Shown here: one piece after another, positions 16,505 through 56,116 of the stretch
How positions within the stretch are numbered: the first letter of the stretch is position 1
How the letters are laid out: every line of letters starts with the position of its first letter
From: Marsupella aquatica
Lineage: Eukaryota > Plantae > Marchantiophyta
Direction of reading: 5' to 3'
Assembly (NCBI GenBank): GCA_973895155.1
Contig: OZ316896.1
Span: 22,835,722 to 22,899,721, forward strand
DNA: 64,000 bases
The notes under the pieces: model-generated
Told to the model about the DNA's origin: nothing
Databases searched by the model: none
Seen by the model: only the letters and a program-made list of their open reading frames with translations
Program-made: the position numbers and the translations under genes

Positions 16505-16543
16505 AACCCTAAACCCACTCCACCGTAAACCCTAAACCCTAAA
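16505..16543 (-). repeat. Interstitial telomeric (TTTAGGG) filler at a rearrangement junction
   Basis: aaccctaaa-cccactccaccgtaa-accctaaaccctaaa lies between the ABCG fragment and the P450 fragment; the 15-bp middle is a copy of adjacent P450 sequence. Confidence 0.85.
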
Positions 16544-30100: not shown

Positions 30101-32508
30101 ATAGCTCGAGCCTTCTCCGTGATAATGCTATTTGAGCGCTCTGCAATACCATTTTGCGTATGATGGTAAGGAGCTGAATGTATCATGCGACACCCCTTCT
30201 CTGCAAGGAAAGTACGAAACAGTGTGCTGCCAAATTCGGTACCATTATCACAGAAAACTTCCAAAATAGTGGATGAGTACTGATTCGCAATAGCAGCAAA
30301 GAATTGTTGAAGAACCACTACTGCTTCACCCTTGTTATGTAGACACGAGACCCATCGATAACGAGTATGATCATCAGTGATCAAAAGAAAATACTTCATG
30401 TTACCCAAACCGAGAGACGACATTGGTCCACAAAGATCAAGATGTATTCTCTGAAAAGGTTTGGAAGCACGAGTATGTTGTTCTCGACAAATGATAGCAG
30501 ATTTGGCCAAAGCACAGGGTTCCCATGGCACAAATGGAGCAGAGTCAGTAAGATGAATCCCTTGGCTCTGAATGAAATGTTTCACACCATCAATGTGTAG
30601 GTGTGCCAGGCGCCTATGGAGAGTATTAAGATTGAAGGTTTGAAGAGAGAGAGTACTGTTGAGAAGATCTGCAGCAAGAGCTGACTGAACACGGAAAACC
30701 TTAAGACCATCCACTTTGGTAACACAAGCAAACTCTTGACCGCTAGGGAGAAGGACAAATTTAGAGTGCCGGCCTTGCCAGTACACACCCCGCTGTTCAA
30801 GAAGATGTTCAGAGATAGTGTTAAGAACACTTGTAGGCATATAGCGTACATTATTTAAGCGTATTGGCCTAAATGTCTGATCAGTACACTGAACATGTAG
30901 ATCAATATTGCCATATCTAGGAGATATGATGGACCCCGCCCCGGTGTTGATGGAGATAGGATCGACGATGTATTGTTGTATTAGCTTTTGATTATTGCAT
31001 AAATGATGATTGGCTCCGGAGTCAGCGATCCAAGTATCTTGATCAATTAAAAATGCTGCTGCAAAATGAGCTTGATGCGCAAACTGAACAAAATTAAACA
31101 CATCCAGCGACACTGATTCGGTTGGAGTGGGAATTGAGGCAGTCGTCTGAACATTGTTGACACCTCGTAGCCTCTCCTGTATTCTCTGCATTGTAATAGT
31201 ATTTGGTTGCCATCCAGGTCTACGTAGATGGACATGTTTGTAGTAGCACATCTCTTCCCGATGTCGAGGCAGCCGACAATATGGACAGATTTCCTTGCGT
31301 GGTGCAGCATTAGGAAGAACAGCGCGAGTAAACGCAGGAGTTGCCACAGCCACTTGAAGTGTAGGTGGCTCGCGCTCAGTTTTACGATGCCATTCATCCT
31401 TTGCTTCAAAGATAAGAGAATCTAACGAAGGTGCATTGGTAGGATCACGATGCATTAACTCCCGCTTAGAAAAAGCCCATTGATCGAAGTGTCCATCCAT
31501 AATACGAATGAACTACATGATTTGAACTGTAGGATCAATCGTGATCCCAGCCGCGGTGCAATGATCAATAGCTTCTCGGTAAGCAATGTCGAACACTTCC
31601 ATCTTTTCCCCACGATAATGAAGTTTCACAAAATGAACCCAATTATCATGTTTCTGTAACAAACCTTGCGGTTGATAGGTCTTCTTCAAATGATCCTAAC
31701 ATTCTTTAGGCGTAGAGATGGTGGCCAAAGAAGTCTAGATATGGGGCTTACAAGTGGAGAGAATGAGCATGCGTGCATGAGCACCCTGCGCTGTGTAGGT
31801 CTCAAGCCGCGCCTGAAAATGGTAGTCACGTTCATCGACATCTTGTAACGGAGGAATGGAATCTTGTAACTTTCCAAACACTACCAGCGGCCAAGCTCGC
31901 AGAGACCAGCATTTGCCAAGCTTCGTAGTTGGCATTGCCATCAAGTTTTGGGACAAAATGAATAGTATGATCGCGATAAGAGAGTGACATGATTCCAGAT
32001 AATTGAAAAAACAGATAAGAATTCTAGCCCGAAAGAACGCAAGTTTGCACTAAAACGAAGATGTTCAAGAAGAATCAAAGAAATTCTAGGCCCATAACCT
32101 GTGATTCTACAGAACAAACAACAAAGGATGTGCAAGAACAAAAATGGTGCGCATGACAAGAGCTAGGAAAAGCAGGAATTCTATAATTCTGTATTCTGCA
32201 GATGAACTGCACAACTCCACGAAGGGGAAAGATAAAGGCCACGAACAGCCCTGCGACCAGGAGACACACAGCTAGGGCGCGGCAGAGATTCAAACCAAAC
32301 AAGGCACGTTGCCCTTGCTTCTCATTGTGGCAAGTGGCAAGTTGCACTTGGTGGAGTGCAAAAGAAAAGCTAAAAGTGAAAACGTAAGTAGGGCTAAAAT
32401 CTGATGTAAGAGTAAAACATATCTCCCTAGATAGAAAGAGATCGACGATCAGGGATCAGACTAAAGAACTGGTCGAGCAGAGAAGAGAACAGGGCATTCC
32501 CTGTCACA
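27194..32508 (-). mobile_element. Full-length but decayed Ty1/Copia LTR retrotransposon
   Basis: 409-bp LTRs at 27194-27602 and 32100-32508 (TG...CA, about 12 mismatches); TSD aaatc/aaatt with empty site gaaatcgaaac in the paralogous repeats; PPT at 27603-27612; PBS GGTTATGGGCC at 32089-32099. Confidence 0.95.
27603..31956 (-). pseudogene. Copia gag-pol polyprotein with stops and frameshifts
   Basis: Zinc knuckle CPYCRLPRHREEMC, protease WIADSGANHH, integrase HRRLAH...DLCGP...DNGTEF...NGIAERSN, RT KARFVARG/LYGLRQSPRLWY/WVDD, RNase H STSGY/DNKPAL/KHIDIQWHFVR; order PR-IN-RT-RH. Confidence 0.93.
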
Positions 32509-33597
32509 AAATTGAAACAACGCTCATCAACTATGCTCACAGAACTAATATCTTCTCCTTCTAAGGGGCGGCATTGAATGGCGAGACCCAAAAATTAGGC
32601 AGCAACAAATGAGTTTTTGAGGAAAGCTCATCCAGATTCTAATTCGATGTGACTTATAATATTCGAACCGATCATGTAGTTGAGAACACGATTTCGGACC
32701 GACCGAGAAGTGTGTCGGAGTTCTCGTTTAGCCCGATCCCCTTTTTTTTCTAAGGCAATGCAATGACCGATAAAACTAGCAAAAACTCTCCGAAACGCCA
32801 CTTTCCTCCATTGCATCGTCGTGGGAATGCAGGGAGCGATACGTGCATCGGGTTTTACATTCCGTCAGTGAAAAAGTCCGAAGTGCAAGTAACTTGGTCC
32901 GAACCGCGTAATCCAGGAACGACCACGCACTAACCCAGGTAAAGGGGAAACTTAACCATGGTTAAGGGGAAATTAACCATGGTTTAGAGCGTCTCCTATA
33001 TAAAGAGGAGCGGGCTGCCCATAAAACGTTTGCTTTCGCTAGAGCAAATATCTCCTGACTGAGAGCGAATACCAAACTCCCATAGAGTCTTACATTCCTC
33101 CCAAGCGATTCGACTCTTTCTACCGAAAACCTGATAAATTTATTGAAACAGCCATTCCTGTTCAAGTTCTCCATGTAAGACTGACTAGTCATTTAGTGTA
33201 AAATGTCCCGATCCGAGCGGACTGCGATAAATTTATCGCATTCTGCATTCCTCTGTTGCAATCATTTGATCCAGTGTTTAGAGAGGTGTTGCCTTCATTC
33301 CGATAAATTTATCGGAGTCTTCATTCCTTTCATGGAAAGAGGAGTAATTGAGAATCCGATAAATTTATCAGAGTTGTCATTTTTGTGAAAGATTGAATTC
33401 AGGGCTTAGGTGTCTGAGGAAGTCATATTTTCAATTCAAATGCGGAGTGCGATAAACTTATCGCATCCTCCTGTGAGAATCATTTTCCTTTGTTTTGTTT
33501 GGAGACTCATCTTCATCTCTGATGTCGCAGTGTTGCCGGGTTTAGGAGGCACAACGGAAGGTCGATTGCACTCCGTGGACAACAGGTATTGTGACAA

Positions 33598-33927
33598 ATG
33601 GCTGTCTTCCTTGAAAATCGTGTCAAACGTGCACGCCGGTTGTACAAGAAACTCGTGCGACTCAAAGTTCTCCCCATTGGTATAAGAGCATTGTGGATGG
33701 GTGGTACTGATCCTGGAGACAGGCAGAATCCTCTTCGCATTGAATTCTGCGGAATGAATGATGCAAGAGTTCCAATTCGTTCGAGGTTGATGTTAACGGC
33801 GTGTTTATATTCTTTGGAGTTTTCTTGTAACTATTGTTGTCGTCGTCTTGACAACAAGTACCACAAACAGGCTCACTTCTGTTGTAAGATTTGGAACGAA
33901 GACCCTTGGGTGAACCTTTCACGATGA
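33598..33927 (+). CDS. Hypothetical Cys/His-rich transposon cargo ORF (109 aa)
   Basis: ATG-initiated ORF inside the TE with CNYCC...H...HFCC; no family recognised. Confidence 0.35.
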   Translation: MAVFLENRVKRARRLYKKLVRLKVLPIGIRALWMGGTDPGDRQNPLRIEFCGMNDARVPIRSRLMLTACLYSLEFSCNYCCRRLDNKYHKQAHFCCKIWNEDPWVNLSR

Positions 33928-34121
33928 GTGTTTCGACCTTTTCATTGAGGCGCGTCTTGTAAGGACATATTTAAATAAACAAGTCCTACCCTTGCGTAGC
34001 GAATATAATACGTCACGAGTCCTAATCGTTAAACTGTCGTGCAGGGTTGGTACTATGGATGTGTTCGGTTACACCTGGTGATTGAAGGTATTTTTATTGG
34101 TGGTTTTGGTAGCTTTGCTTC

Positions 34122-34660
34122 ATGGCTGCATCGGAGAATCTAATTGTTGCAAAGATGGGATCCGTTTTAGCCCACGAGCGTAGGAAATATATTCAAGGAA
34201 AAGTGCCCGGTGTGGAATGCGGAAGTTTGTTGAATGGACTTCCCGATCAACTCGTTGAATCTCACATTTGGCCCCTCCTAGCCTTGTCTTGCACACAAGA
34301 TGAACACCTTGGCCTTGACCTAAAACTTCTACCAGAAGAACGACTGACTCGAATGAGAACAATCATTTGTCTTGGAGCCACCTCAAAGAAATGGAACCTG
34401 TTGTTGGTACACGATTTTGGGCGCTATTGAAATATGCAGTCCGTGAGATCAATGACATAAACAAAATGCTCGCAAGCATTCCTAATGCCGACCTTCTCTC
34501 AAACATACATATTGCTAGGGTCTTCCGAGAGGAAACTCATTTCCTCCCTCCCATAGATATGCTTGGGTGCTTTTCGTATGAGCAATTAGATCAGTTTCGT
34601 AGAGTTTGGATAAATCATGGAAAAAGCGGGAAGCGGACAATTCTTGCATGGCATGGATGA
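34122..34660 (+). pseudogene. Transposon cargo ORF with F-box-like motif, frameshifted
   Basis: LLNGLPDQLVESHIWPLL...LGATSKKWN resembles an F-box; continues in overlapping ORF 34367-34660. Confidence 0.45.
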
Positions 34661-34981
34661 GTCTGAGTGGATGAGGCATTGCTGCAAACATCCGATAAAT
34701 TTATCGCACTCCTCATTCCTCTAGTCAATTTTGGGTGCTCTAAGGTTTGCTCGAGAAGAGCTTGTAAAGAAACACTTTGAATGTAATTGACTCTGCCTCC
34801 CCTGACTTCGGGTTGTGTGGTCCAAAGTGTATTTGTTTGCGCCTCTTTGGACGATTAGCTGACAAGTGCATTGGCTTCACAGCCCGTTATACAAGGTACT
34901 GTAAAGTTGGATGAAACTTGTAGAATTGTAATTAGTATGTTCTCCAAAATTTATTCCTGATTTCTATTCGATGATCAGGCC

Positions 34982-35998
34982 ATGCTCGAGCGACGCATTT
35001 TTGTACCCTACTTGGATCCTCCAGAATGGGGGAATGGAGCCATGCTGGACCAACTAAGGAGGCTGGATGAGTCACTAATTTTAAAGATATGCAGGCTGGT
35101 AGTAAAACCATTTTACCATAACGCATTTCACTTCTACGTAGATCAGGTAGGGGGAGAAATTTATATTCGGTGGGATAGATATGTTGGATTTTCTAGAAGA
35201 GTTATCCTACTCTTTCTGAAAACCGGTGCAGTAAGACGTTTTATACTCCACTGCTGTCATGTTGTGAAGGGCAATCCTGCTTATGAGCCAGAATTCTATG
35301 CCGACAACAGACGTAGAGCATTTGATGAGATTCAGGATGTGATTGCTCGGGGGTTTCACTTCCACAAAAATGGCATATCACGTGCGACGAAGGATAGGGT
35401 CATTTTATTGGTTGTAAGGGAAGACTTAAGAATTTTTGTAGAAGAACAATAGGGTCTTTTAAATTCAATTTTGAAACTTATAAGAACATTAGGGCCTTTT
35501 TAATCCAATTTTTGGAATATTCTAAGAATATTCCAACTTTATAGGGGTTAAAAAATAATATTTTTTTCTTACATTTTAGGGGGTCCAAGGCCTAAAAACG
35601 TCGCAGGTGATGGGGAGGTCCCCATGTAGTGAGACCCCCGAGTGTGATTGACGAGCTGGACAATCCTCTTGCCACCGAGTTTTTTATTGACACTGGTGGG
35701 AAACTATATTCATACAAGATTCGTCAACTCCCCCCAGCCGGTCTGTGCGCTCTTTAACTTGATCTATGTAAGTTGCCTGTGGACGAACGTCCTTGCCAAT
35801 GGTGAGATCTGTCCATGCTGCACAAATGCTTGTTGTGACATTCCGTCACGCCGGTATTCAGTAGCAGTAGTGAATCCTGAGACTGGTGAAGTTGATTTCC
35901 ATTGGCTGTGGGCTTATGATCATCGCGTCACTCATATTCCCCAATGGCCCAAGAAGCGGATTGAACGCTTTGCTCTGGCGAGGTTCAACTATGATTAG
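34982..35998 (+). pseudogene. Transposon cargo ORF interrupted by a MITE; Cys-rich C-terminus
   Basis: ORF 34982 reads into the MITE at 35346; after excision it continues DELDNPLATEFF, and one more frameshift joins it to CPCCTNACC of ORF 35648-35998. Confidence 0.5.
35346..35642. mobile_element. 297-bp MITE, copy A
   Basis: TIRs CTCGGGGGT(T/C)TCACT; 8-bp TSD tgtgattg at 35338-35345 and 35643-35650. Confidence 0.92.
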
Positions 35999-38456
35999 GG
36001 TTTAGGTTTAGGGGTTAAGGTTTTGGATTTAGGGTTCCGAAGCTGATTCTTCGACCTGTACACTCGGCCGTCAATTTAAAGAAGGCTCACTTTTGCAATA
36101 ATTTTATCGGTCATTTGCATTGCGGATCTCTTTGTCCTTGTGTGATGAGATGTCGTGTCCACATGTGCTGTGAGATTGGCGGCGATAATTTTATCGCTCT
36201 TTGCATTGGAATTTGTTTATTTGCAGACTTTGCCATGGCTGCTAGTGGAAAGAGTGGATCTGCTGAGGCAGAAAGTCTCATGACAAGCCTCACCAATGCA
36301 ATTTGGACAAGTGAAGACATTTGTGAAGAGGTCAAGTGTATCAAGAAGTCATGGTACTTCCGTGACGCCAGATTACAGTCCACGGGTTTTGAAGATTGTG
36401 CTACCCCAATCCTTTGGGTCCAGTTGCAAAAATTGGCGAAGGTTAATGTTTCGTATGGCCCTGTCATTGCTGTTGCCGTCGTTGAGTTCATGGTTGGCCA
36501 CGGGGAGGGAAAAGTGTTGACAGAGGGCCTTAGTTTCTTGACAATGTGTGGGCGCAAGGGTTTCACATCTCTCATTGTTACTCTCGATAACTTTGATGAG
36601 AAATCGATGGACAGTTATCCAGAAGATCCCCTTGTTGCCGAAGTTCGGGCAGCAAGAGAGATGAATGTTATGGGTTCGGCTTGGATCGGCCAGTATGTGC
36701 AAGATTGTGATGCCATCATGCTTCCAAGGGTGAACGCAGAGTACAAGAGACTTGTGGGTGAAGAGTTCAAACCTGTCCGCAAAATTGTTTTCAAGAAACC
36801 AGGTTCAAGTGGCAGCGGTGGTTCTAATGCCGATAAAATGTCGGGGCGGAAAGAACCATTGCAATCCTCTACACATATTGACGTGGACGAACCTACAACT
36901 TCTGGTCGGGTTTTGGGAAGTGGAAGAGGGAAAGGGAGAGGTAGCGGCAGGGGAGATGCTGTGGGAACCTCTGACGGTGGGAAGAAGAGCCAGGAAACTG
37001 GCGGTAGTGGGAGAGGCCGGGGCAACCGTCAAGGACCATCCGTTAAACCAAGCAAAAATAAAGGATCCGAGGGATCCGGGCCATCTGGTTCTGGACTTAG
37101 CACAAAGAGGAAGAGGACTGGCTGGACTGAGACGATGGCTGCAGAAGTAGATAGAGCTCCGTCAATTCCATCAGTTCCAGTCGCGGTTCCTGCGGCGCCA
37201 TTGGTAAGTACTACGTTGTTGTACTGTTTAACAAATACGAAATTCGATAAAAATCTCACTGTTTATTTCCTGAATTGTGGATTGTGGAGTTATGTTGAAC
37301 AAATGCAAACTCCGATAAAAATCTCACAGTTTCTTTCCTTAATTGAATTTGCAACGCTTTTGTAGGCTGATCAGGAGGAGGAGACGGTTCTTTTGATGTA
37401 TGAGACGGACGCAATCAAGGCAGAGCTCAGTCTTCTGATGCAACAAAGGGTGCAAAGGACAACTGTGCTTCTGCATGTCGACAATCTCATATTTGATGAG
37501 GAGGGGGATTTGTCAACTTTGATTAGACCAGTGGATAGATTTCATGTGGAAAATATCAAGATACTTCTCATGAAAAACCCCACCAACTTCAGTGCCCCGT
37601 TCGTGCTGTGTGTGGATCCGAAGGATTGTCCCACAACCGCAGATTGGGACATCCTGAAGTCAAGGGTATGGAACTTGTATAGAATTATTGGAGGGAATCA
37701 TGGTGCTCGGGCAAAGTCCGAGTCGTTTAAAATATACGGGAAGCAAATATATGGTGAGCTGGAAGCTTGGGTTTACGCTGGGCTTACGAGATCCGAGGTC
37801 CGAAAGTTAGGCTTCCAGCATAACTATGACCAGGAGTATCGGAAGAACATGACTAAAATTGACCAAGTTCGCGCTTGTCACAATATTTTCCTTGAAATGG
37901 GTGTGGGCTCGACTAAAGATGTCCGCAAAGCATGTTGTCAAGAATGCATGATGGAGTACACGCCAGGAGTTCGTGACTCCATGGCCAAACATGATCCGGC
38001 TTTCCAAATTGTTTTCCGAACAGGTGAAATTTGGGATCTTCAGGAGCAGATTTTCCAGATGTGGGAGAAAGGTATTGTCTTAGGACAACCCAAAAAAATT
38101 GTGGCAACGACGAACGCAAAGGGAAAGGTAAAACCTTTGATGGTAAGGGAGATTAAAATGAATAAACTTGCTGGTGACCTCAACTTAAATTCATTTCGAG
38201 GTCTCCAAGGACTGTCAAATAAGGAGCATGTCAAGCGTCTCTTGAATAGGGTTATCGGGAAGGTGATCACTTTGGATCAAATGCACAAGGAAGGTGAGAA
38301 GTTGAAAAAGCTTGCCAAGGTGAAGAAACTATTTTTGCAGATATCTGGTCAGCCAGATTGGGCAACATGCAGAGAAATGTTTCCCAACAAAACAGATGTC
38401 TCGGTCCTTGGCATATGGGCGGAGAAATTGAATGACCCGGTAAGCATTCCTCTCAC

Positions 38457-38719
38457 AGCATGCTCTATCGCAAGATTTTTATCGGCTTTAGCATTCCTTT
38501 GTTGGTTTCTAAGCGATTGCATCTATCAGCTAGCGTGCTCCATTGCGAGATTTTTATCGGCTTTAGCATTCCTTTGTTGGTTTCTAAGCGATTGCATCTA
38601 TCAGCTAGCGTGCTCCATCGCGAGATTTTTATCGGCTTTAGAATTCCTTTGTTGGTTTCTAAGCGATTCCATCTATTGGCTAGCGTGCTCCATCGCGAGA
38701 TTTTTATCGGCTTTAGCAT
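38457..38719. repeat. 75-bp tandem repeat (about 3.5 units) in intron 2 of the ParB-MTase gene
   Basis: agcgtgctccatcgcgagatttttatcggctttagcattcctttgttggtttctaagcgattgcatctatcagct repeated. Confidence 0.9.
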
Positions 38720-39016
38720 CTCGGGGGTCTCACTATATGGGGACCTCCCCATCGCCTGCAACGTTTTTAGGCCTCGGACCCCTTAAAATGTAAGAATTTT
38801 TTTTAATTTTTTAACCCCTATAAAGTTGGAATATTCTTGGAATATTCTAAAAATTGGATTAAAAAGACCCTAATGTTCTTATAAGTCTCAAAATTGAATT
38901 TAAAAGACCCTATTGTTCTTCTACAAAAATTCTTAAGTCTTCCCTTAGAACCAATAAAATGACCCTATCCTTCATCGCACGTGATATGCCATTTTTGTGG
39001 AAGTGAGACCCCCGAG
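38720..39016. mobile_element. 297-bp MITE, copy B (inverted relative to copy A)
   Basis: TIRs CTCGGGGGTCTCACT; 8-bp TSD tttagcat at 38712-38719 and 39017-39024. Confidence 0.92.
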
Positions 39017-42000
39017 TTTAGCATTCATCTCACGCTATTCTAATTGTAGATGTGTCTGACATTTTTACAGCTGAAGATTAATTCAAAAAGGAAAAGCAAA
39101 GTGGTTCCGGCTATCACTTATAATTCTGCGGGGGAGGTTATTGTTCCCTTAGCTGAAATCCCTTATGTGTTTAAGAATTTTGTGTTTGCTGCAATCGATA
39201 AGTACAATCGGCTGAGGTCCTTAGGCGAGGGCACAGCAGAAGCGTTTGAACAAACATGGAAAAATGCAGACGGGGATTCTTTTCCCTACTATCTCCATGT
39301 TGGTGATGTTCGAATTTTGGATTCTTTTGTTCAGCCAAGGGCTTACACCCTTGCGGTTGCGGATATTCCGTATGGTTAATTTAATGCTCCTGGTTCGGAG
39401 TTTGATGAAGTGGCCTTCACAGAAAAGGACATTTTAGACATGTTGACAAGTTTCTCAAAGATGACGACCGCTAAGCAGTGGAGGTTTGTTGTGATCCATT
39501 CACTACAACAAACGCATATGGTGATGTCTGCACTGGAGAGTGTATGCAACTGTGGGGTCGAGGCTAGAATCTGGGAGAAGACTAACATTCATGAGCGTCC
39601 CGCTGGAGCTCGATTGGCGTGGGGTTTTGAGAACTGGTCGATAGGTTTCTATAGCGAGGAAGGCATTCGAAACATGGACATGTACAATTTCCAACCGGAT
39701 GAGTCTTGCGTCAATATCATCAAGGTTCCATGTGTAACCAAGAAGTCCGTTGATCCGTTGGGATTTGTTGTGAACCCGTATCAGAAGCCTGTTGGTTTGG
39801 GGGCTTGGTTTGTTTCCCATTTCTTTGAGAAAGAGGATTGGGTTATTGATCTTTGTTGTGGAACCGGATCGACATTAGCTGCTACGCTCCTCAATTCTCG
39901 CCAGGGTTGTGCTGTTGATAAGAGTTCTGCGCAGATTGATTTTATGAAATCCTGGATCATGATTCTGGAGTCAAACTGGAATTTATATGAAGAATCCCAG
40001 ATTGAAGGGCACGGCGTTGAAGGTCATGAGATTCAACCACCAATTGCAGGCCAATTGGGTGTTCTCGGGACATCAACTTACGTAGTTGAGTTCGTGAAGG
40101 AGACCGAAGAGGAACAAGAAGAAACTGAGGAAGAGCCTCCCAGAACACCAAATGAGGATGATTTCAACGACATGTTATTAGATTAGTTGCGTGTGCTCGT
40201 TAGGATAATGTCAATCACCAATGGAGTTGTCGATAAATTTATCGGATTCTGTATTCCATGAGGAAGAACCTTTGTCACCTTTATTAATGCGATAAATTTA
40301 TCGGACTTTGCATATATCGGACTATCGCGGTGTTCTAGCTGGGGGAATGGAGTTGTCGATAATCTTATCGGACTTAGCATTGTATGCTCTAATTGGTTTG
40401 TCATTGCAATTATTTCAAAAAAAAAGATATCATTATAGCTGCGGAGTACATAGTCCCAGAACGATAACCACTGTACATATTCATGGGAACGATAACCATT
40501 ATAACTTAAACCTGCAACAAGCTTCGACTATCAACGACTACAGTCTCCATTGCATTTTGAATGATTCGTCTTGTTTGTATAGGGAGAGTACTATTTGCCA
40601 ATAACACAAAGTTATACGCATAAACGGCAGTTTCTGCTAGGGACAATTCATCCTCCAGTACTTTGCTAGACGAAGCCTCTTTCTCCGGATAATATCTGCC
40701 TTCAATTGCAGACTCTTCCTCCGAATCCATTGCATACCAAGTGATTTTAATCCGCTCCGGGATGTCGTTAATTCTTGTGAGAATCTCAGTCACTTTTGCC
40801 ATCCAGAATGGTCTTCCCTTGGGATCCTGATGGGCTGCTACACATATCATTGCAAATTTAGTATTCACCTCTAGATCCTTGAAGTCTCCAATTTCTGTGA
40901 CTTTTCTTCGACTTCCGGAATACATGACTGTCCTCACACCCGCTACTTTATCAACCAAGCTAGGTTCCATTGCTGCTTTCGTAGGATTACTCGGAAGTTC
41001 TCTCTGTACGTTTACCTTGGGCCAACTCCAATCGAAACTCCATTGTGCAGGTTTCAGGTGGTGCTGAATCACTTCTTTTTGTTTGTCAAAAAAACGACCC
41101 CACCATAGACGATCTTCATCGTCAAAGTAATTGAATCCATCTTCAATTGCTCTTCGATATTTTTGAAGAGTTGACAAATAACTTTGAGCCGCCCGCTCAT
41201 CTTGTTCCTCAACATCATTCTCTTGCTCTTCATTGTCTCCTGTCGCTCCCGTGGCCGACTTCAATGCCATTTGTGGTGCAACCCACATTCCAGATGATGG
41301 AATGTACCGAACAAAATCCACTGTCTCCCCCCAATCGGTTGTCGTTGAAAGATGTTTGGCATGGAATACGGACCGAGCACTTCCATCTTCGAGTACTCTA
41401 GTAATCCAAAATTGTTTTTGAGCACTTATGCCGTGGAGAGTACGTAGAACCTGACCATCCATATCCTTGTCATTTGCTTGATCCTTGTCTGACACAAATT
41501 TCTTGAAATCGGCAACCTCGTCGACGAAAAATATCTTTGCCATAGGATTGTAGGATTCCTCTATGATTGCTGAAAGAGTGTCCAACCAGAAAGCTTTCCG
41601 CTTGTTCAATTTTGAAGAAAACTTGCTAAACATTTGATCAATTTGATCATGGGTGTGCCCCACCAATAGGAAACCAACCTTTATTTTCTGGAAAACACCT
41701 ATCTCCACCAACATATTCAAATATGCCATAAGATATTTATTCTTGTTTTCCCGAGCTGTGTTATCAAGCTAGAGGTAAAGCACTGGAGGGAACAGACCTT
41801 CCCAGGTATTCAGAATATGCTGGATAACGTGGATGGTCAGGTTGCTATCATTGTGAATATTTGGATAGTTCAAAAAAACATTTGAACTTAATTTTTTGTT
41901 GAAGATCAAACAACCCACTACATGTACGGGGATGAAATACTTTTCATCCATATTCTTCGGACACCGAATGAAATGAGGTAACTCTGTCTTCTTTTGATCC

Positions 42001-42170
42001 ATTCCATCAATACAGATGCCCAAATATTTCTCCGAATTCTTGTAACATTTGCTCCGGTGCTTTGCTAACTTCTCCCTCTCGACTGCTTGTGCCTTCCGAT
42101 GCTCGTTTAGCAATGTTGAGAATTTTCCTACAATAATAAAAATGTTTAGGACAAAACATGATAACCGCAA

Positions 42171-42335
42171 TGTTGAACCCTGACAGCGATAAATTTATCG
42201 GGTTCAGTATTCAAACACGAGACCGTAATGATAAACCCTGACAATGATAAATTTATCGGGTTTAGTATTCAAACACAAGACCGTAATGAAAAACTGTGAC
42301 AGTGATAAATTTATCAGGTTCAGTATTCAAACTTT
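42171..42335. repeat. 58-bp tandem repeat (about 3 units) in the transposase intron
   Basis: aaccctgacagcgataaatttatcgggttcagtattcaaacacgagaccgtaatg repeated. Confidence 0.85.
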
Positions 42336-43209
42336 CAAACGATATATTCACTCATATGGCCAAAGAAGAAGCACATGAATACTCAACCCGATAAAATTAT
42401 CGGGAGTAACACACAGGTTTAGAAACTTACTCTTTTCTACTTCGAGTGTTGCCTTGTCACAGAGTGCTTTGAATTCAGTACACGGGGCGCAGGTGGAGAA
42501 ACGGCTCCTTTTGGGGATGCGCACGCGAGGAAACTCCTTGTTCCAAATGCGAACAAACCACGAATATGTCATGCCTTGTTCTTGGCGCATTAGAGTTTCG
42601 GACTGGAAGGCATCAAAAACTTCTGTTTTTGTCCAATTGTCAGGTAAGTGAAAGATATCCTTGTTGGGGAGACTCTCGACATTTGTGGAAAAAAAATCAT
42701 CCAGCCATTGGACGAGACCAAGATGTGCGGGTGATTTTTCTCGACAAACTGTACCGATCTGTATCTGAGAAAACATGTTCTGCGAGATTTTTTGGAGACG
42801 ATTATTTCCTAGTGAAAATAATTTCTTAAAACCACTCCGTCAAAAGGATCTACCGCTAACTGAGTAACCACTTGCACCAGCATGCCCACCCTTCACACAT
42901 CCTCTAAGAAGGACGTTTTTCTTTGGGTAGGATAGCCCATAGTAATAAGTGCGTTGTTTTGTCACGGCTAGCAGACCCAAATTCCTCAGACAGTAATTAT
43001 CACAACACGAATACTTATGAATTTCTCTCATTTTGTTTCTATTCAATTTGTCATTTATCACATTGTCTTTCCTAGTAATTCGGTCCCTATCTTTTTTACT
43101 AGGCTCATTTGACTTCTCTACAGCCTGAAATCCGTTCATAACATTGGCATTTTTGGGTCCTTCAGGTGCCTCGCGAATAGATGCATCACTCTCTGCTGAG
43201 CTACCATCC

Positions 43210-46200
43210 TGTCACTTGCCTATCCAACGATTAATACGTGCAACCCGTACTATCCCTTGCTTAAACCGTTGGTATCGTATTACGGGGTCGTGGAGGGACG
43301 CTATTTGGAGGATTTCCACACCTAAGGATGAGTATGTTTGATTCCGCTCCCGAAAGTGTACTTTTTGATCAAGTCTACCGACTGGTCTCTCCGTTTTTGA
43401 TCAAGTCCAAGGGACTGGTCCTACCATCTACAACTCATGCCCACCGGGTGAGTGCTGTCACCACCCCCCTCCTCTCTTGGGCAAGCATACCAACATTTAC
43501 AATAAGATTTGAACTGTCGTATAGTGCTAAGTATCAAAAGTGACTCTTCTCACCTAAAACCAGGGTTTCGATCCCTTAAAGAACAGATTTCAGAATGAAT
43601 TGTATAACTTTTATCTCTCGGAGTGATTTAGAGCCCTGAACTCTATGCTGAATTCACTTTTCAACGAAAAAATCAAATAAACAAACCACCAAGTAACTGA
43701 ACTTCAGATTTATGAATCAAAGAAGAAATGAGTAAGAATTTAGAGACTACAAGCTGCTACTGCCACTCCTTCAGAAAGGATCTGGGCTCAGTATAGACAT
43801 GAAATCTGTCTCATAATTCATCAATCTCACATTTCAAAACACCAAGGTTAATGATAATGGAATTCTCAATCTAGAAGCTTTCTGGTTGCAAATGAATGAT
43901 ATGATTTAAAATGCCGTCAACATGGTTTGACGTCAGCGATGCGCAATTCAGTCAAACTCTAAACCATATTCCAGAATCAAAACAACGGTACTAACTATTC
44001 TGAGAATCAGAATTTACTTCTCATTTATCAACAACTAATCTTGAATTGGCTAGCGAATCTTGACTTCACAAGTAAGCCTAGCAGTGAATTCAATTGGAGT
44101 ATCAGAAGTCTGCAACTGAATTCAATCACCACAGGAATTTCTTGAATTCAATCTCAACTTCAATCAATACAGCTTTACTTCCATACAAAACACTCACAGC
44201 ATGCCTTGTTACAATGGAAGGAGGAGAAAACTATTCAGAAGACTTAATTCTGAATAGAGTATTAAGTCTATTTCTCTCCCCGAAAATGAGCACTCTACTC
44301 TGTCTTATAAGTGCTGGAATCCAAAAATGGAGGAGGCAAGAACAGTCGTGCCTTTCCAAGTTTAAAACTAAACAAGGGAGAAGTACAGCATAAGTACTGC
44401 CAGGGTGGCAAAATACTACTCTACTAGTAATCTACTTCAAAAAACTAAGTCTAAGTGTCGAGTGGACGCTGCTAGAAGCGTCTTAAGAAAACCAACGGAC
44501 GCTGCTCACAGCGTCAATACTAGGGTGGACGCTGCTCACAGCGTCGTGTGTTGAAGCGGACGCTTTGCACCGCGTCGGTCAAAATTCTCATAGAGTCTTG
44601 GTGGCGGTGGGGCAAAGTACACTAGGAATCGTCAGGAAAGCCGGAGATGTCAAATATTTCAATAAGTGTCCAGAACAAGTAAATGTTGGCCAGGAGGCGT
44701 CTAAAGTGTAAGTAAATCTTGAGATATGCCAAAAATAAACAAGTTTCCAGAAAAAATTGCAGGGACACCCATACCACATGAACACTAGTGACAAGGGCAA
44801 ATGTTTCCACAACGACACCGACCACACGCACTAGGGGAGGAAAACAACCAACACAAGCAACAACAAGTGACACACAAAATATTGGAACCTCAAGCCAAAT
44901 CCATATCTCTTGGTGTTTCCCGTAACACATGCAAGGACAACCCGGCCTCCTGCCGTCTGCCCAACTCCTGCCTCCCGGGGACAAGTGCTACGTTCTCCAC
45001 CTCACTACTCTGGCTTGAACTTCTCCTAATCGGTGCGCTACTCACAAAAGCTACTCCAAAGCATCCAAGTACTACGCTGAGTTCCCCCCCTCACTACTCC
45101 GGGGCTCTCCCCCTAAATACCAAAAAAACCACACCAAAGCACCCCTCATGGGGTCACAACGATGGCGGCTACCCTAGCGGCGCCGCTAAAATCCTGTACT
45201 AAGAAATCCCTAAACTAAAAAGGCATGCGGCACACACATGCTGCTAAAACCCTAAACCCTAAACAAGGGGTCGACGGTGCCTTCGACGGCGCCCCAACTG
45301 TACACAGTGAACCCTGAAATTGCAAGGCACCCCACAATGGCCGAAACTAGGTGCCCTATCAATTGTACTTTTGAGCTCACCCTTGGATAGCCCTTCTCCT
45401 CCTGATCCCGAATCACTCAACCGTACTCGCAACGGACATCGGACGCCTGAGTTATGGTCGTTTCCGTATCGCGAAAACACAATTTCGCCGGGCCATAACT
45501 TGCTCATCCTGGCTCCGTTTGAGGAGCGCCGCCTCTTGTTGGAATCAACTCCGCGAGCTCTTTCCAACAAGCCCGTGAGTGACCCCTCAAAAAAAGTTGG
45601 AAATCCAGAGGCCGTACAACCACATCCGTACGACTATCTACTCCTCCTCTTCTTCACTCTCGGTGCCCTGGCTTGTGCCCCGTGAGTGGGCCTCCTCTTC
45701 ATCACTCACGGGAGTGAGTGCCACCTCACTTTTCTTCTTCTTTACCGGGGTACTCTGCTCTAACGTCTCTACTCTGGCTGTGGCGTGCTTGAGAGAATCT
45801 CTCAATGCGTGGACTAGCTTGAGTCCCTCATGGACTCCCTCTCTGAAATCCCGTAGCTCTGCCAGGTAAACATCCGGAATGTTGTAGACCAGGGGCTTTT
45901 TCGGATCTCCCACGAGTGATTCAAGCCACTCCAACGTGTAGTCCTCATCCTGGTTTTCTTCTCCTCTATCCCCACCAGCCGACGATGATTCCTCCGTGAG
46001 CTTCCCTAAAACGGTAGTGGCAATACTCTGGATCTCCATGGTGAGAGATGATCCCGTGTCTTCCTGTCCCGGGGAACCAATCAACCCTTCTGCCCTGGCC
46101 AATACAAATGACCCCATCAAATGTACAGCCCCACCTGGTTTCACACTCCCGGGATCAGCGGCCAACAGCTTCTTCAACCCGTAGTACCACCATCCGTACA

Positions 46201-48330
46201 CATGGGCTGGGTGGTTCTTGATGTCCATAGCTACCACAAAATGCTCTTCATTCACCACCCCGGATTGCACATTGCCAAGGACCTGTTGATGAACCTTGGC
46301 CAGGAATCCCTTATAGTCAACATCCTTGACAGCGTAAAGAGGGATGGCAGTGGTTGAGGTGGGATTAATCACCCAAGTGGCCACCATCTTCAACGTGAGT
46401 TCTCCCCTAATGTGCCGAGGTGTGAATGAGAATTTCTGATTGTCCAGAAACAACAGCCTAGCCAACTCCACATGGGGCACTACACGTTTGAGACATTCAA
46501 AGTAGATTCCCTCCGTTCGTAACTCCATCCCGGCCTCAATGTCCCAGCTCTTCTCCGGAGGGATGGTAATCTCCACCTTCATGAATTTTGTAACCCCGGT
46601 GGCTTGGAAAATATTCCGACAATCCTCCATCACCTTGGCGGAGGTCTTGGGATAAATTCGACAAAAAATCCTCCTACCCACCGGTGTGGAACCTGCTGCC
46701 AATCCCATGCTCATCGTAGCTTCTCTCTCTTCTCTCTCCCTTGCAATCAAAGTCTCCACGTAGTCACGGTAAGCAGCCTTGTATCTCCGAATGCGTGCCA
46801 CACTAAACTCCGGTTGATCTAGCATTCATGCATCCCGAAATCAAATCCTCAATCACCAAATCCCGTCACCCGTAGCAATGTCAATTCCCTAGCCCAAACA
46901 GCCCCCGTAGCCCGATCAATCAATCAACCTCCTCAATTCCCTCAGAAGCCACTCCGTGCTGCTACCGCTAATGCCCGGAAGAATCATGCCAACAAGCCCC
47001 AACAATTGACCAAGAGAAAGAGCTTCCAGAATAATTGCAAAATGTGGAGAGAGCTTTCGGCAGAGCAAGAAGTCACGCAAAAAGAAGGGAGGCAAAAAAA
47101 TGAAATACAAAGAAAAGGGGAGAAAACCCCTTTCTTCACCCTTCCCAACAATCCTTTGTCCTGGCTCCCCTCACGCCATACGCCCCGGCTCGCGGCCCTA
47201 TGCAGGGCGCACACAAGCTGACACGCGGCTGTCGCTTCCCCGTTTCTCGCCCGCCGTGCCCAGTACTTGCCTCCCACTAGTCGGGGAGCATTTACTCCCC
47301 CCGTACCTCTCTGCCTTGGGCCTCCGCGCCCCCCCGTTTCCTCCTGCAGCCCCGCGCCCTCCTCCTGCTCGCGGGAGCCCTGGCTTGCCCCGGCTTGCCT
47401 CCGTACATGGCACGCGGCCCTATGCAGGGCGCACTGCCTCATTACTCCCGGCCTCAGCCTCCCATCTGTTCCTCCCGGCTGTCGTTTAGTCCCCCTCATG
47501 GGAGGGTACAGGGTGCCTCCCCTATCCCAGAGTGCTGCGCCCCTTTTGGGGGATTTAATTTTCTCCCCTGGCATCCTCTCTCACAGCCACCCCCGCTCAC
47601 GGGCTCACGGGAGGGTTTAATACCCCCCCTTTACTCCTCTTACTCCTCGGCTGCGGCCCGGCTGCCCAACTCCGAGCACCTTGGCTTGCCCCGGCTCGCC
47701 CTCTGCCAGCCTGGGGATTCCATGTGGCGGCCCTAGGGCTGCCCCTTATGGGCTCCCAAGTGCTCGCCCTCTGCCAGGCCACTTTAAGGGGCATTTAACC
47801 CCCCTCCGCGACCTCTCTGATCACCGGCCTCCTGCTACCCCGGCCTCCTCCTTAGTACTCGCGGTGTCCCATAAGGGGGAATTTTAATTCCCCCCCCATC
47901 CCCGAGCGCACCCCGGCTCCGCCGCGCCTCGCTACGGTAGCTCTTTTGGGGGGGTTTACCTCCCCTACAGCCTTACCTTAACGCTCCCCCCGGTGGCGCC
48001 TCGCTTTTCCCTTATTCCGTAAAGGTTAGCACTCCTCCTAATCCTTATTTGGGGTCTCAACGAAAGAAAGAGGGAATCAGGGCCTAAGGGAAATAGGGGG
48101 TCCACTTAGACCGACCCTAGTTTCAAGGTCCCAACATCCTGGCTTACTGGGAAGCCATAGGCCTCCAAACTATTAGGATATCAAAGAATGTCAAGACCTC
48201 CTGGGCATAGCAACCGATAATGACGGTCGTAACAAAAAAACAAAAAAACGGCTTATTTACAATGGTTATTTACACTCACAACACCCCGCGACCATTATTC
48301 GTGATTTTGAGTGACGGGGACCCCGTCACA
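43210..48330. mobile_element. 5.1-kb nested insertion, probably a very long solo LTR
   Basis: TGT...ACA termini; perfect 5-bp TSD catcc at 43205-43209 and 48331-48335; no terminal direct repeat or pol motifs seen. Confidence 0.8.
45638..46825 (-). CDS. Uncharacterised 395-aa ORF inside the solo LTR
   Basis: Intact ATG-initiated ORF with a coiled-coil-like segment, basic PVKKKKSE and an acidic tail; no family recognised. Confidence 0.55.
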   Translation of the reverse strand: MLDQPEFSVARIRRYKAAYRDYVETLIAREREEREATMSMGLAAGSTPVGRRIFCRIYPKTSAKVMEDCRNIFQATGVTKFMKVEITIPPEKSWDIEAGMELRTEGIYFECLKRVVPHVELARLLFLDNQKFSFTPRHIRGELTLKMVATWVINPTSTTAIPLYAVKDVDYKGFLAKVHQQVLGNVQSGVVNEEHFVVAMDIKNHPAHVYGWWYYGLKKLLAADPGSVKPGGAVHLMGSFVLARAEGLIGSPGQEDTGSSLTMEIQSIATTVLGKLTEESSSAGGDRGEENQDEDYTLEWLESLVGDPKKPLVYNIPDVYLAELRDFREGVHEGLKLVHALRDSLKHATARVETLEQSTPVKKKKSEVALTPVSDEEEAHSRGTSQGTESEEEEE

Positions 48331-49489
48331 CATCCTCTATAGATCTCCTTGACGCATTTAGAGGGGCACTGAATAGACGACTATAACTATTCTCTTCGAC
48401 AGCTCCTTCTAAACATTCAGACACAACTTGTGCTATTATATCGGATTCTCTATCTCCTTCCTCATCTTCGTCCTCCGATGCACTCGACTCATCTGAAAAC
48501 ACAATTGGACTCCGTGGCTCTCTATACATAACCCGAACGCCACTAAGACCTCTCCTCGATACTTGGAGCCTGGAACCAATGATAGTCCGCCCTTGAGAAC
48601 TTGGAGATTCTGGATTCGCACGTGCAGTCCCAACGACTCCGCGAGCTGCTGGAAAATTGAGCACTTGTTCACCACGATTCCCACGAACCATTCGAGAAAG
48701 GGCCGAGTCTGGACTTCGCAGTCTGATTCCCTTGCTTGCTCGCACATCCAGTCCAGGCAATGCAAAGACCGATCGCCGTATCAGTCTTTGTATTTCTGTG
48801 TTCCGATCCTTACCTGGAGACTGAAAGATCCGTCGTTGAACTTGTGTTGAATGTGGCGACTTGATTGCCGACTGCGATACGCGTATCGGTCATCGGATAC
48901 CCTCTCCATAACCCAGGATGGATGGCTTGAAGCGATGTCTCGGACCTAAACCTGGGATTGAAAGTTTCTCATTTCTTGGCGATGGAACGCTCAAGAGACG
49001 ACGCTTCTCAGGTTTACTAGGCGACACATAGTAAGCACTGGGCTTAGGACCAGAACTTGCATCAGAATCTGAGTCAGAGATTTCGGGCACTATTTGCTGT
49101 GAGAGAGGTAGAGCTTTAAGTATGCGACTTGGCAAACAGCGAGCGACAAGATTAGGAGAGGATTCAACTGAACTGGAAGGAGAATCTGTGTCTGATTGAG
49201 ACATGGCTATTCGAGACACTATGGGGCTTTGCATTCCTCCCGCAATCAGGGAAAACGAAAGGCTCAACGGACAAAATGTTGCTCCAAGAACACAACTCCC
49301 AAAACTCTACTCTCGATAATGACGCCAAAAACTTATCGGCGGTGGCCCTTTTATAGTGTCTATTGAGGGGTTGGCCCACGTGTCCACTTTTGATTGGCTG
49401 TCACCCTAAACGACAAAATAGCAGAAAAGGGTATATTTCTTGGATTTCCAATTTCATTCTCACACGTGCATCGTGGCAAAATTATATAG

Positions 49490-49705
49490 TTTTGAAATTG
49501 AAGCGATAAATTTATCTAATGTTGGTATTGCAAAAGTGGTTCCTTCATATGGAAGTTGCAATTTGAAATTGAAGCAATAAATTTATCTGATGTTGGTATT
49601 GCAAAAGTGATTCCTTCATATGGAAGTTGCAATTTTGAAATTGAAGCGATAAATTTATCTGATGTTGGTATTGCGAAGAGTTTTCTTCATATGGATAGGA
49701 ATTTT
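49490..49705. repeat. About 71-bp tandem repeat (3 units) in the right subterminal region of the TE
   Basis: tttgaaattgaagcgataaatttatct...ggtattgcaaaagt...catatggaagttgcaa repeated. Confidence 0.85.
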
Positions 49706-51166
49706 GAAATTTAACCGATGAACCGAAGGATCTTAGTATTATCGACTAGTATTTTTGTCGCCCGTATTTTCGATAATTTTATCGGACTGCGCATTGCTGT
49801 TGAAAGAATGGCATGTTGACTATATGGTCACTTGCGGAGGTAACTGGTCAATTGCGGAGGTAACTGCAAGGTAAGTTTGACGAACCGTGCAGTAATTCTT
49901 ATCGACTGTGATGTAAAATATTTTTGGTAAATATCCAAAAACTGAGAAAACTGAGATTGGGTCGGAGCTTTCGTGGCTCAAATCCGGAGTCCGATACAGT
50001 TATCGCACTTGGCTCGAAACGTGGATATGGATTTATAGATAAGACCTTTCATATATCTTCGGAGAGCGTGAATATGAGGTTGAGGAGAAAGTTTTTCGGA
50101 TCTAATTGTTCCTTGATAATATGAATGTTTGTTAGTATGAATTTCATTGGTTTTGATCATTATTAAATTTGCTGTTTCAATCCGAACTCCGATACGAATT
50201 ACATTATTTCCCCAAAAATGTGTTTTTGATGAAAAAAACTGTCGATTTCGCGAGATTCGGCGGAAAATGAAAATACACTTCTCGTTTAGAGGAAATAGTT
50301 CTCGTTCGGTCCGAAATCGTGATTGAGGTACTTAGGGTAAATGGTGAGCAAATCCCCCCTTGTCTAGTCCTTCAGATTGGGGCTGGCACTTTGTGGTGTC
50401 TATGAGCAGTACTGTATTATTTATACAGAGTCGTTTCTGACTGAGATGCTTGTTCGAATATCAGAGTAAGGATTTATATGTTGCCCAAGAACGGAAATAC
50501 ATGTAGAGATCGGGGCAAAGTTTCAACCTGAAAACAAGCTGCAAAATGCTGTAGCGTCCTTTGACAACAACTAGAAGACGACTTGTTATTGCTTAAAGCA
50601 CACGTGCCACTAGAAAAGCCCCATTCCATGTCTCATTACTCACCATAAAAGGTGGAACACTAAGCACCTTTTATGGAACACTTGCTAATGAAAGGTTTTG
50701 CACTCACCACTTCTGTGCAGCTCAAAGCACATTCTTGACCGTGTGCATCTTACAATGAGAGCTAGGGGCCCGTAGCCGTTTATAGGGGCAGTTGTGGTTT
50801 AACAAACCACGCACAGCAACGTACTCTGAGCTGAACAACGAGTGGCTTAACGCAACTAACCTCAAGAGTCCTCTCTCGATAGCCTCTGGTATATTACTAA
50901 AAATTTGCTTTGACACGTCGAGCGTGTTCTTTCAGTTGTGACCAGCCTCTTTTTGTTTGTGCATGGCTAAAACGCTTGGTGAGTCCCCGGTTGTTCTATC
51001 CAAGAGCTTTCAAATGCAAACGTTTGACCATTTCTGCAAAACAAGATTGTCTAGTCAACTGTCTAGCTGGGTCGACAGACTGTCTCCAGTAAATTAGAAA
51101 ACAAATTGAAGAATGACGAGATTCTTATGAGTTTCGCCGACTTGGGATCCTTTTGAGCGGGAGTCT

Positions 51167-56018: not shown

Positions 56019-56116
56019 GTTTAGGGTTTAGGGTTTGAACCCAGAACTGATTGGTGCATGGAGTTAGTGGTGAGTTAGTGGTACAGTCAGAGACTTAAGT
56101 TTGTTTAGGGTTTAGG
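56019..56116 (+). repeat. Telomeric TTTAGGG filler plus local duplication at a deletion junction
   Basis: gtttagggtttagggttt (56019-56036) and gtttagggtttagg (56103-56116) replace about 270 bp present at 12901-13171. Confidence 0.75.

Follow-up and report, generated by a model that had tools for sequence, protein, structure and literature searches.

A decayed liverwort transposon carrying a ParB-like/methyltransferase fusion gene and a dispersed composite palindrome

The stretch of DNA considered here, a window of 64,000 nucleotides from contig OZ316896.1 of the liverwort Marsupella aquatica, holds at positions 32685-50323 a decayed copy of a high-copy DNA transposon bounded by terminal inverted repeats (TIRs). 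The element encodes a DUF7869 transposase and, convergent with it, a fusion of a ParB-like domain with a DNA methyltransferase; copies of a composite palindrome are scattered through its non-coding DNA. A preliminary description of the window had placed these components together in one element, and that observation holds. The explanation that we tentatively prefer, with somewhat less than even confidence, is that the fusion protein docks on the palindromes of its own element and methylates the element, likely at adenine N6, and that the mark serves the element.

The proposed mechanism would run as follows. The ParB-like helical domain would read the composite palindromes, probably as a dimer in the manner of ParB, Noc, and KorB. 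Docking would bring the methyltransferase to the promoters, introns, and ends of the element, where the enzyme would methylate element DNA, with adenine N6 as its predicted target. The mark would then benefit the element, most plausibly against host silencing, or else as a licence or timer for transposition. The identity of the motif-reading protein, the activity of the enzyme, the methylated base, and the benefit to the element are what we infer; the architecture on which they are built is described first.

The element and its two convergent genes

The window contains only two matches to the 23-nt TIR CACGATTTCGGACCGACCGAGAA: 32687-32709 (plus strand, no mismatches) and 50299-50321 (minus strand, one mismatch); the expectation from shuffled sequence is zero. 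The arms can be extended to 30 nt at 87% identity. Just outside both ends lies the target-site duplication (TSD) TGAG, although a 5-bp duplication, TTGAG, fits equally well if the right boundary is moved one base earlier. The interval between is a single TIR transposon of 17639 bp, including nested DNA. Logan contigs from four public runs were aligned to the region; they show variation among family copies, and their summed depth is not a copy number. Contigs of other family copies skip three stretches: 35338-35642, 38712-39016, and 43205-48330. Without this nested DNA the element measures 11903 bp (17639-5126-305-305).

The cargo gene lies on the plus strand, convergent with the transposase gene. 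It is modelled as three exons with canonical GT-AG introns in phase 0 and a predicted product of about 1050 residues. Its parts are as follows, with a slash at each splice junction.

36235..37203, plus strand: exon 1, a domain without known family, then a Gly/Ser/Arg-rich linker; donor TTG/GTAAGT
37204..37365, plus strand: intron 1, GTAAGT...TTTTGTAG/GCT, with two half-site repeats
37366..38439, plus strand: exon 2, a ParB-like N-terminal domain and a helical DNA-binding-like domain; donor CCG/GTAAGC
38440..39070, plus strand: intron 2, acceptor TTTTTACAG/CTG, with a 75-nt tandem repeat (38457-38719), degenerate motif copies, and the second copy of a nested insertion
39071..40186, plus strand: exon 3, a beta-class amino-methyltransferase with an acidic tail; extra TAA at 39377-39379

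This splice model is predicted, as is that of the transposase gene: no Logan contig joins exons across the predicted introns. One of the related loci described below, L005, has a GT donor (AAAGAG/GTAACT) and a CAG acceptor at the position matching intron 2. Exon 1 has no match in Pfam or in the Atlas; its block is nevertheless kept in two related loci, L001 and L003, at 31-33% identity (tblastn). The only lesion in the gene is the extra TAA codon, directly after the catalytic DIPYG, where relatives read DIPYGFNAPG uninterrupted. Contigs that lack this codon account for most of the depth in runs X1 (1019/1551) and X2 (934/1049) and for about half in X3 (1254/2558) and X4 (891/1975). Within the ParB-like exon, at position 37674, the single covering contig in each of the four runs lacks three window bases: a second in-frame 3-bp insertion private to this copy.

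The ParB-like exon, in which Pfam detects no family, is recognized by its predicted fold. An AlphaFold (AF2) model of window exon 2, built with 29 relatives, has a pLDDT of 82.7, and the proteins ranked highest for it by Foldseek are without exception ParB, Noc, KorB, or Spo0J, 7BNR being the best. In VIA-align comparisons the N-domain aligns with Caulobacter ParB (7bm8_A) at Z 10.3 and a root-mean-square deviation of 2.1 A over 96 residues, with PadC at Z 9.9, and with sulfiredoxins at Z 7-8. The N-domain and helical domain together reach Z 8.3 over 185 residues against the ParB-parS complex 6t1f, and Z 7.9 over 197 residues against KorB (8qa9). Alignments through model residues 158-315 include 4umk (Z 5.9); helical regions score readily, and this part is a candidate DNA-binding domain. 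The name ParB-like is valid as a statement about modelled fold; membership by sequence profile fails. A sequence search of the PDB with the two cargo ORFs (open reading frames) gave chance-level matches only, and a profile search with the ParB-like family returned methyltransferases only, because the alignment contained long fused relatives.

An exhaustive HMMER search with exon 2 found 140 relatives, 38 of which were scanned against Pfam. Nine of the 38 carry the methyltransferase family PF01555 (eight above the Pfam cut-off); it lies C-terminal of the match in eight and overlaps the match in the ninth. Among the nine are annotated proteins from Chara, Ginkgo, Riccia, and Holothuria. Named plant relatives of the exon are hypothetical proteins of Chara braunii, Ginkgo biloba, Riccia sorocarpa, and Adiantum nelumboides. 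Those from other lineages come from Holothuria leucospilota, four Haliotis species, and a transcript of the amoebozoan Clastostelium. The Haliotis proteins (H. rubra, H. cracherodii, H. rufescens, and H. asinina; P0099 and P0301-P0303) are 543-548 residues long, carry weak Tudor-type Pfam hits, and form one cluster at 90% identity; in abalones the relative may be not transposon cargo but a host gene that arose by domestication.

The methyltransferase exon is more readily classified by its relatives than by itself. The window ORF scores 21.8 bits against PF01555, below the gathering cut-off of 26.7, whereas the family is found in 24 of 26 relatives at 51-73% identity. In the alignment, motif IV (ADIPYG) precedes motif I (DLCCGTGS), the permutation of the beta class; both motifs are kept in 15/15 aligned relatives, with DVPYG in three. 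The AlphaFold model of one relative (P0001, 72% identical, pLDDT 68) stands in for window exon 3. Its fold matches begin with CcrM (6pbd, E 4.4e-11), followed by TTHA0409, rotifer N4CMT, M.PvuII, and M.RsrI. Because motif IV is of the D type, the sequence hints at adenine N6 as the methylation target. A pattern scan with the methyltransferase alignment over 185,579 prokaryotic species genomes and IMG/VR, which detects close relatives only, found no relative.

The transposase gene occupies the minus strand. Pfam detects DUF7869 in two ORFs, 40506-41768 (E 3.8e-32) and 41769-42194 (E 5.5e-9), and an Atlas search matched DUF7869 clusters of Streptophyta only. Coordinate arithmetic gives a frame that begins near 49306, extends to 48331, and, with the 5.1-kb insertion left out, resumes in phase at 43204. 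It crosses a predicted intron of 303 nt (42430-42128, GTAAGT...TTGTAG, phase 1 on both sides) and ends at 40506, for about 1120 codons in total.

48331..49306, minus strand: transposase 5' coding part, Ser-rich; stop at 48890-48892
42431..43204, minus strand: middle coding part; stop at 42840-42842
42128..42430, minus strand: predicted intron, AAAAGA/GTAAGT ... TTATTGTAG/GA, with four motif copies in 58-nt tandem units
40506..42127, minus strand: last exon, DUF7869 core; stop at 41769-41771; tblastn matches in L002, L005, and L003

The three stops are in frame. At 48892 and 41771 the window has A where the majority of family contigs have G; these two stops are thus coding-strand C-to-T changes private to this copy or to a minority. 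A PDB search by sequence returned no transposase relative, and Pfam showed no DNA-binding family in the N-terminus. Assignment to CMC/EnSpm, suggested by the CAC... termini, is not favoured: C(2)C and H(3-4)H motifs define the EnSpm-Transib clade, as stated in the accessible part of Kojima 2025 (PMC12730594), and the translation reads neither between the acidic residues, the presumed second and third of which are about 40 residues apart. Sola1 elements have a 4-bp TSD. The same length is recorded for Sola2 elements (PMC3627910), and Sola domains had no Pfam match in 2017 (PMC5751038).

This copy is dead, and the family looks recently active. Dominant contigs in the four runs differ from the window at about 1% of positions; it is these high-depth contigs, without the TAA and without two of the three transposase stops, that make the family look young. 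Summed depth over the cargo gene is comparable to that over the transposase and the ends. In run X1, 42 of the 54 differences listed for 36000-40400 are G or C in the contigs and A or T in the window, a bias suggesting that this copy decayed by deamination of methylated cytosines, as in a silenced copy. One X4 contig (depth 363; joint 33477>49327) skips 15.8 kb: an internally deleted derivative that keeps only the ends and the two subterminal clusters of the motif.

Most of what the preliminary description said of the architecture is borne out. It had proposed one element with TIRs and a 4-bp TSD, about 11.9 kb long without nested DNA, and the nested insertions are indeed absent from contigs of other copies. 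Its transposase is the broken minus-strand DUF7869 gene, and its convergent ParB-like/amino-methyltransferase gene is now a phase-compatible three-exon model. Foldseek, a comparison it had recommended, matched both a ParB-like and a beta-class methyltransferase fold. Two details change under the splice model: ORF 36019-37365, described as separate cargo, becomes exon 1 of the fusion gene, and the in-frame 'stop' at 37363-37365 becomes the acceptor of intron 1.

A composite palindrome with a family-specific core

The palindrome GATAAATTTATC has 11 exact copies in the window, and 11/11 lie inside the element. With up to one mismatch the figure is 17/17; with up to two it is 21/22, one copy lying outside. 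In 100 dinucleotide shuffles of the element the mean was 1.18 and the maximum 6 (up to two mismatches). The preliminary estimate of about 20 copies in non-coding DNA stands. The 14-mer core CGATAAATTTATCG, allowing up to three mismatches, has 24 copies, distributed as follows.

33132..33463, left subterminal region: 5 copies; core CGATAAATTTATCG, often followed by N7 and CATTCC
34693, near the small ORFs: 1 copy
36096..36196, upstream of the cargo gene: 2 copies, 40-140 bp from the predicted ATG
Cargo intron 2: 3 copies
40231..40370, between the convergent stop codons: 3 copies
42128..42430, transposase intron: 4 copies
Right subterminal region: 6 copies, with a cluster of 5 at 49504..50005, ahead of the transposase gene

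The predicted exons of the two modelled genes contain no copy, and neither do the nested insertions; two further half-sites lie in cargo intron 1. The core is one part of a larger unit. [CT]ATT occurs at a distance of exactly 7 nt in 17/48 flanks, and the full unit reads GGAATG-N7-core-N7-CATTCC, often with a single arm only.

A metagenome scan with the methyltransferase alignment yielded six contigs, L001-L006, from a single metagenome, in which blocks were located by tblastn. In five of the six (L001-L005) the ParB-like block is followed by the methyltransferase, at 48-60% amino-acid identity to the window. The convergent transposase is present in L002, L003, and L005; the other contigs end before reaching it. 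L006 has a distant methyltransferase only (38%). Comparisons between loci of nonsynonymous (pN) and synonymous (pS) divergence indicate that the cargo proteins are under purifying selection: in the methyltransferase pN is 0.05-0.30 against a pS of 0.49-0.87, and synonymous sites are saturated between these versions (pS 0.75-0.87, pN 0.13-0.30). For the closest pair, L004 and L005, the methyltransferase dN/dS is 0.07. The ParB-like block gives pN 0.245 and pS 0.775 between L003 and L005; L001 was left out of this estimate (stop or frameshift in the extracted block).

The window palindrome was sought in the related loci and found in none; each has its own motif. L001, L004, and L005 carry GAATG-N28-CATTC units with the core CGAGACnnGTCTCG; the core of L002 is GGAGCGAGACGGGTATCGCT; and L003 has GAAT(A/G)-N7-CGATCCAAACATCG 12 times. 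Window and relatives share the arm, the 7-nt spacing, and a CGA...TCG frame, and differ in the centre of the core. Every half-core match in L001-L005 (62/62) falls in non-coding DNA, whether ahead of exon 1, in the gaps between exons, or in the space separating the convergent genes. The coding blocks, although they account for over half the length of these loci, contain no such match. Because this geometry persists where synonymous sites are randomised, it argues for selection on a cis element.

A reader helix that changes along with the core was sought too. Variation is confined to approximately residues 178-206 and a basic linker, and with five sequences the sample is too small for a conclusion.

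The preliminary description had named co-occurrence and co-variation of the parts as the tests of its idea, and one-off capture of the methyltransferase gene as the outcome that would speak against it. Gene order recurs in five of the six diverged loci, with the convergent transposase in three, and each related family has its own core in the same non-coding places. Depth is roughly even over cargo and transposase, and the proteins evolve under purifying selection, which is not the picture of a one-off capture.

What the palindromes and the fusion protein may be for

Dimers of chromosomal ParB, Noc, and KorB bind to palindromic sites, and the proposal that the fusion protein does likewise on its own element has several observations to contend with. 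The motif clusters near both ends resemble transposase-binding subterminal repeats, and the transposase of about 1120 residues has a Cys-rich region ahead of its catalytic part. On the side of the presumed reader, the Pfam ParB family is absent from the window ORF and from the 38 scanned relatives (E up to 0.01). The segment aligned to the ParB nucleotide-binding motif, GERR, is GGNHGARA, in which only G110, H112, and A116 are near-invariant; since the arginine pair is missing, a CTP-clamp mechanism is unlikely. The ParB-like domain is also well conserved between loci with different cores, so that no changes that might set specificity stand out. Since all six loci come from one metagenome, co-variation is documented at the level of families, not of species. 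The methylated base is tentative as well, since the PF01555 domain has switched repeatedly between N6-methyladenine (6mA) and N4-methylcytosine (4mC), according to the accessible part of Rodriguez 2022 (PMC8885841). Finally, the copy in hand is dead, with a TAA in its methyltransferase, three in-frame transposase stops, and a 5.1-kb insertion.

The first two of these observations suggest another account, unlikely on balance and still the one to be taken most seriously: the palindromes are binding sites of the transposase, the subterminal ones for excision in cis and the internal ones for autoregulation, and the fusion protein acts elsewhere or non-specifically. Ac and En/Spm are classical cases of elements whose proteins bind subterminal repeats. 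Here motif clusters of 5 copies lie within about 330-820 bp of each end, and exactly the two subterminal clusters survive in the X4 deletion derivative. Transposases acting as sequence-specific activators are reported in a 2026 preprint (10.64898/2026.08.24.746577). However, the TIR itself lacks the motif, and copies are also present in both cargo introns, the promoter, and the 3' intergenic region, including in the five loci that cover these places. Furthermore, a ParB-type helical domain is a known reader of palindromes, whereas the N-terminus of the transposase gave no DNA-binding family.

Methylation might instead couple transposition to replication, fully methylated protein-binding sites being inert and hemimethylated ones competent, as with Dam and IS10/Tn5; the mark would then have nothing to do with silencing. 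Dam control of IS10 and Tn5 is the precedent. Enzyme and repeated sites are linked in one element and co-inherited, and conserved GAAT(G/A) arms beside variable cores would suit an arrangement in which the methylation target is constant and the adjoining docking site changes. The sites, however, are not confined to the ends, where a transposase acts, and we consider such a switch improbable.

It is more improbable still that the repeats have no protein partner and are slippage-expanded tandem or hairpin DNA in non-coding parts, or a source of small RNA. Many copies do sit in tandem units of 45-75 nt, and full units are palindromes of 38-40 nt able to form hairpins. Neutral DNA, however, would lose the GAAT(G/A)-N7-14-nt core geometry, which persists at saturated pS (at least 0.75). 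Many window copies, moreover, keep the core and one arm only, so the long hairpin is not conserved.

Hardly credible, lastly, is a passenger gene captured once and useless to the element. Capture of host or foreign genes by DNA transposons does occur, and a TAA breaks the gene in this copy, but five more loci repeat the gene order at 48-60% identity, purifying selection on the gene is strong, contigs free of the TAA make up the majority of depth in X1 and X2 and about half of it in X3 and X4, and analogous genes exist in algal Sola1, Plavaka, and Zisupton elements.

Self-recognition by the fusion protein, the explanation preferred here, can be carried one step further, though the extension is a long shot. 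The unit would be a two-part landing pad, in which a ParB-like dimer reads the fast-evolving 14-bp core (CGATAAATTTATCG, CGATCCAAACATCG, or CGAGACnnGTCTCG) and the methyltransferase marks an adenine in the GAAT(G/A) arms 7 bp away. Each family would then place a private 6mA signature on its promoters, introns, and ends, and new families would arise by joint change of core and reader. If this were true, land plants such as liverworts, ferns, and Ginkgo would contain 6mA that transposons write at addresses set by sequence, which would supply a concrete source for disputed plant 6mA signals, as well as a natural tool for programmable DNA methylation.

Surroundings, known systems, and meaning

The remaining features of the element are its ends, its nested insertions, and a group of small ORFs. 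The 297-nt inverted repeat 35346-35642/38720-39016 was considered as the ends of a nested element around the ParB-like exon, and rejected: its arms are missing separately elsewhere. Because other copies lack each 305-bp arm on its own, with 8 shared bases, the arms are two independent insertions of one miniature inverted-repeat transposable element (MITE).

32681..32684: left TSD, TGAG
32685..32716, plus strand: left TIR
34113..35998, plus strand: small ORFs, with one motif copy at 34693
35338..35642: nested MITE, first copy, 305 bp; joint 35337>35643, 8 shared bases, in X2, X4, and X5
38712..39016: nested MITE, second copy, inverted, 305 bp; joint 38711>39017, 8 shared bases; in cargo intron 2
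43205..48330: nested insertion of another repeat, 5126 bp; joint 43204>48331
43510..44778: insertion within the 5126-bp insertion, 1269 bp, TG..CA, 5 shared bases; joint 43509>44779
50292..50323, minus strand: right TIR
50324..50327: right TSD, TGAG

Local depth over the first MITE copy is about ten times that of the adjoining DNA. In X1 the summed contig depth of the MITE exceeds that of its host element by a factor of 30-100, and the other runs give a still higher ratio; depth of up to about 570,000 marks it as a very abundant family. The 5.1-kb nested repeat reaches a G+C of 0.57 and a depth above that of its host, and contains an ORF of 395 residues (45638-46825, minus strand) without a Pfam family; the 1269-bp TG..CA insertion within it looks like a solo long terminal repeat. 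The three small ORFs at 34113-35998 match no Pfam family at E up to 5. One of them, 34961-35337, was searched for relatives and has a single one, at 47% identity.

Outside the element, remnants of a Ty1/copia element (RVT_2, rve, and Pol_BBD; 28650-31512, minus strand) lie just to its left. Two copies of a gene pair, Kelch-repeat first and ABCG half-transporter second, stand at 9922-16531 and 53693-60291, about 43.8 kb apart. The pair looks like a segmental duplication, with the transposon between the copies; a third Kelch ORF (21140-22327) also lies between them. The window thus has three Kelch-repeat genes and two ABCG genes, one of which, intronless (57763-60291), encodes a protein 79% identical to one of the leafy liverwort Calypogeia fissa; Calypogeia, Marchantia, and Riccia supply the next named matches, in keeping with a liverwort host. 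A pair of tRNA genes (61493-61563 and 61688-61758, plus strand), 195 bp apart, received the same Rfam score.

The architecture has precedents in algae. The preliminary description had not recognised it as already described; that claim of novelty falls, while linkage in one element, recurring gene order, motif co-variation, and the absence of a one-off capture stand. The closest precedent is Sola1-1_Ec32 of Ectocarpus, a 21.5-kb element with a ParB-like/methyltransferase gene on the opposite strand (Genome Biol 2025, PMC12477816). Its authors propose that the protein attaches to the very element that encodes it and alters that element epigenetically; they cite Petroll et al. 2025 and, for green-algal cases, Iyer, Abhiman and Aravind 2011. 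Both elements are large TIR transposons with an opposite-strand accessory gene, for a protein of about 1050 residues here and about 1100 there, and the TIRs and 4-bp TSD of the Ectocarpus element's class are matched here (TGAG). The present host is a land plant rather than a brown alga, and the element is 11.9 rather than 21.5 kb long; the two proteins are compared by description only. No 1104-residue protein is among the 140 HMMER matches of exon 2. In the accessible description of Sola1-1_Ec32 there is no cognate motif, splice model, or co-variation.

Accessory genes of Plavaka elements in the red alga Bostrychia offer a second precedent (Petroll et al. 2025, 10.1101/2025.02.11.637652, as far as accessible). 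PAG2 combines PF01555 with a SET domain, and PAG3 a ParB-like domain with a 2-oxoglutarate (2OG) oxygenase. Tandem inverted-repeat arrays stand beside PAG3 across families, a self-binding, self-modifying hypothesis is advanced, and PAG genes move between Plavaka, Zisupton, Mutator, and Fanzor-bearing elements. The best HHpred hit of the PAG3 ParB-like domain, 7BNR, is also the best Foldseek match of ours. In the present element, unlike the PAG cassette so far as it is described there, the ParB-like domain is fused directly to PF01555, and the carrier is of the DUF7869 rather than the EnSpm/Plavaka type. Across the ORFs of the element, Pfam detected neither a SET nor an oxygenase family.

The VANC proteins of Arabidopsis VANDAL elements show the same relation of motif to family: the motifs lie in non-coding DNA, are often tandem, and differ between related families (Hosaka 2017, PMC5735166, accessible part). 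VANC likewise is encoded by the element, acts on the element's own motifs, and causes loss of 5-methylcytosine; in contrast to the fusion protein, it is not an enzyme of this type, and its carrier is a Mutator-like element (MULE); kinship in sequence or fold is not expected.

With bacterial, phage, and plasmid ParB, Noc, and KorB, the protein modelled here shares the predicted fold of the N-domain and, tentatively, that of the helical DNA-binding domain, and a palindromic site of 14-16 bp fits as well. It differs in having no Pfam ParB match, in the loss of the nucleotide-motif arginines, and in its predicted spliceosomal introns. A ParB-like domain N-terminal to a PF01555 methylase is a common fusion order in prokaryotic mobile elements.

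Host PF01555 enzymes with demonstrated activity, which make 4mC, are rotifer N4CMT (PMC8885841) and Marchantia DN4MT1 (10.1101/2021.02.12.428880), both as described in the accessible text. They too are bacterial-type beta-class amino-methyltransferases, acting in eukaryotic chromatin, and Marchantia is also a liverwort. The enzyme described here has DIPYG, of the D type, as motif IV (TSPPY in Marchantia), is transposon-borne, and has a ParB-like partner rather than a chromodomain. An amino-methyltransferase is not listed among transposon-borne epigenetic modifiers in the accessible part of Kojima 2025 (PMC12730594), nor is a transposon-borne one among eukaryotic PF01555 genes in that of Rodriguez 2022 (PMC8885841). 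No land-plant case was found in a literature search that lay outside Repbase and the supplements of the two algal papers.

Self-marking, or anti-silencing, is thus offered as a hypothesis here as it is in the algal papers. What is new is the occurrence in a land plant, together with a splice model, fold support for both domains, evidence of selection and of a young family, and a co-varying composite motif with a conserved arm and a family-specific core.

Transposons that carry a DNA-modifying enzyme along with its addresses are a newly recognised class, so far described in algae. The Marsupella element extends the range of this class to land plants, with protein relatives in Riccia, Adiantum, Ginkgo, and Chara, and ParB-like ones in abalones, a sea cucumber, and an amoebozoan. 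Its composite motif is a defined cis element, present in the same non-coding places across six family versions, and makes the idea of self-binding and self-marking directly testable.

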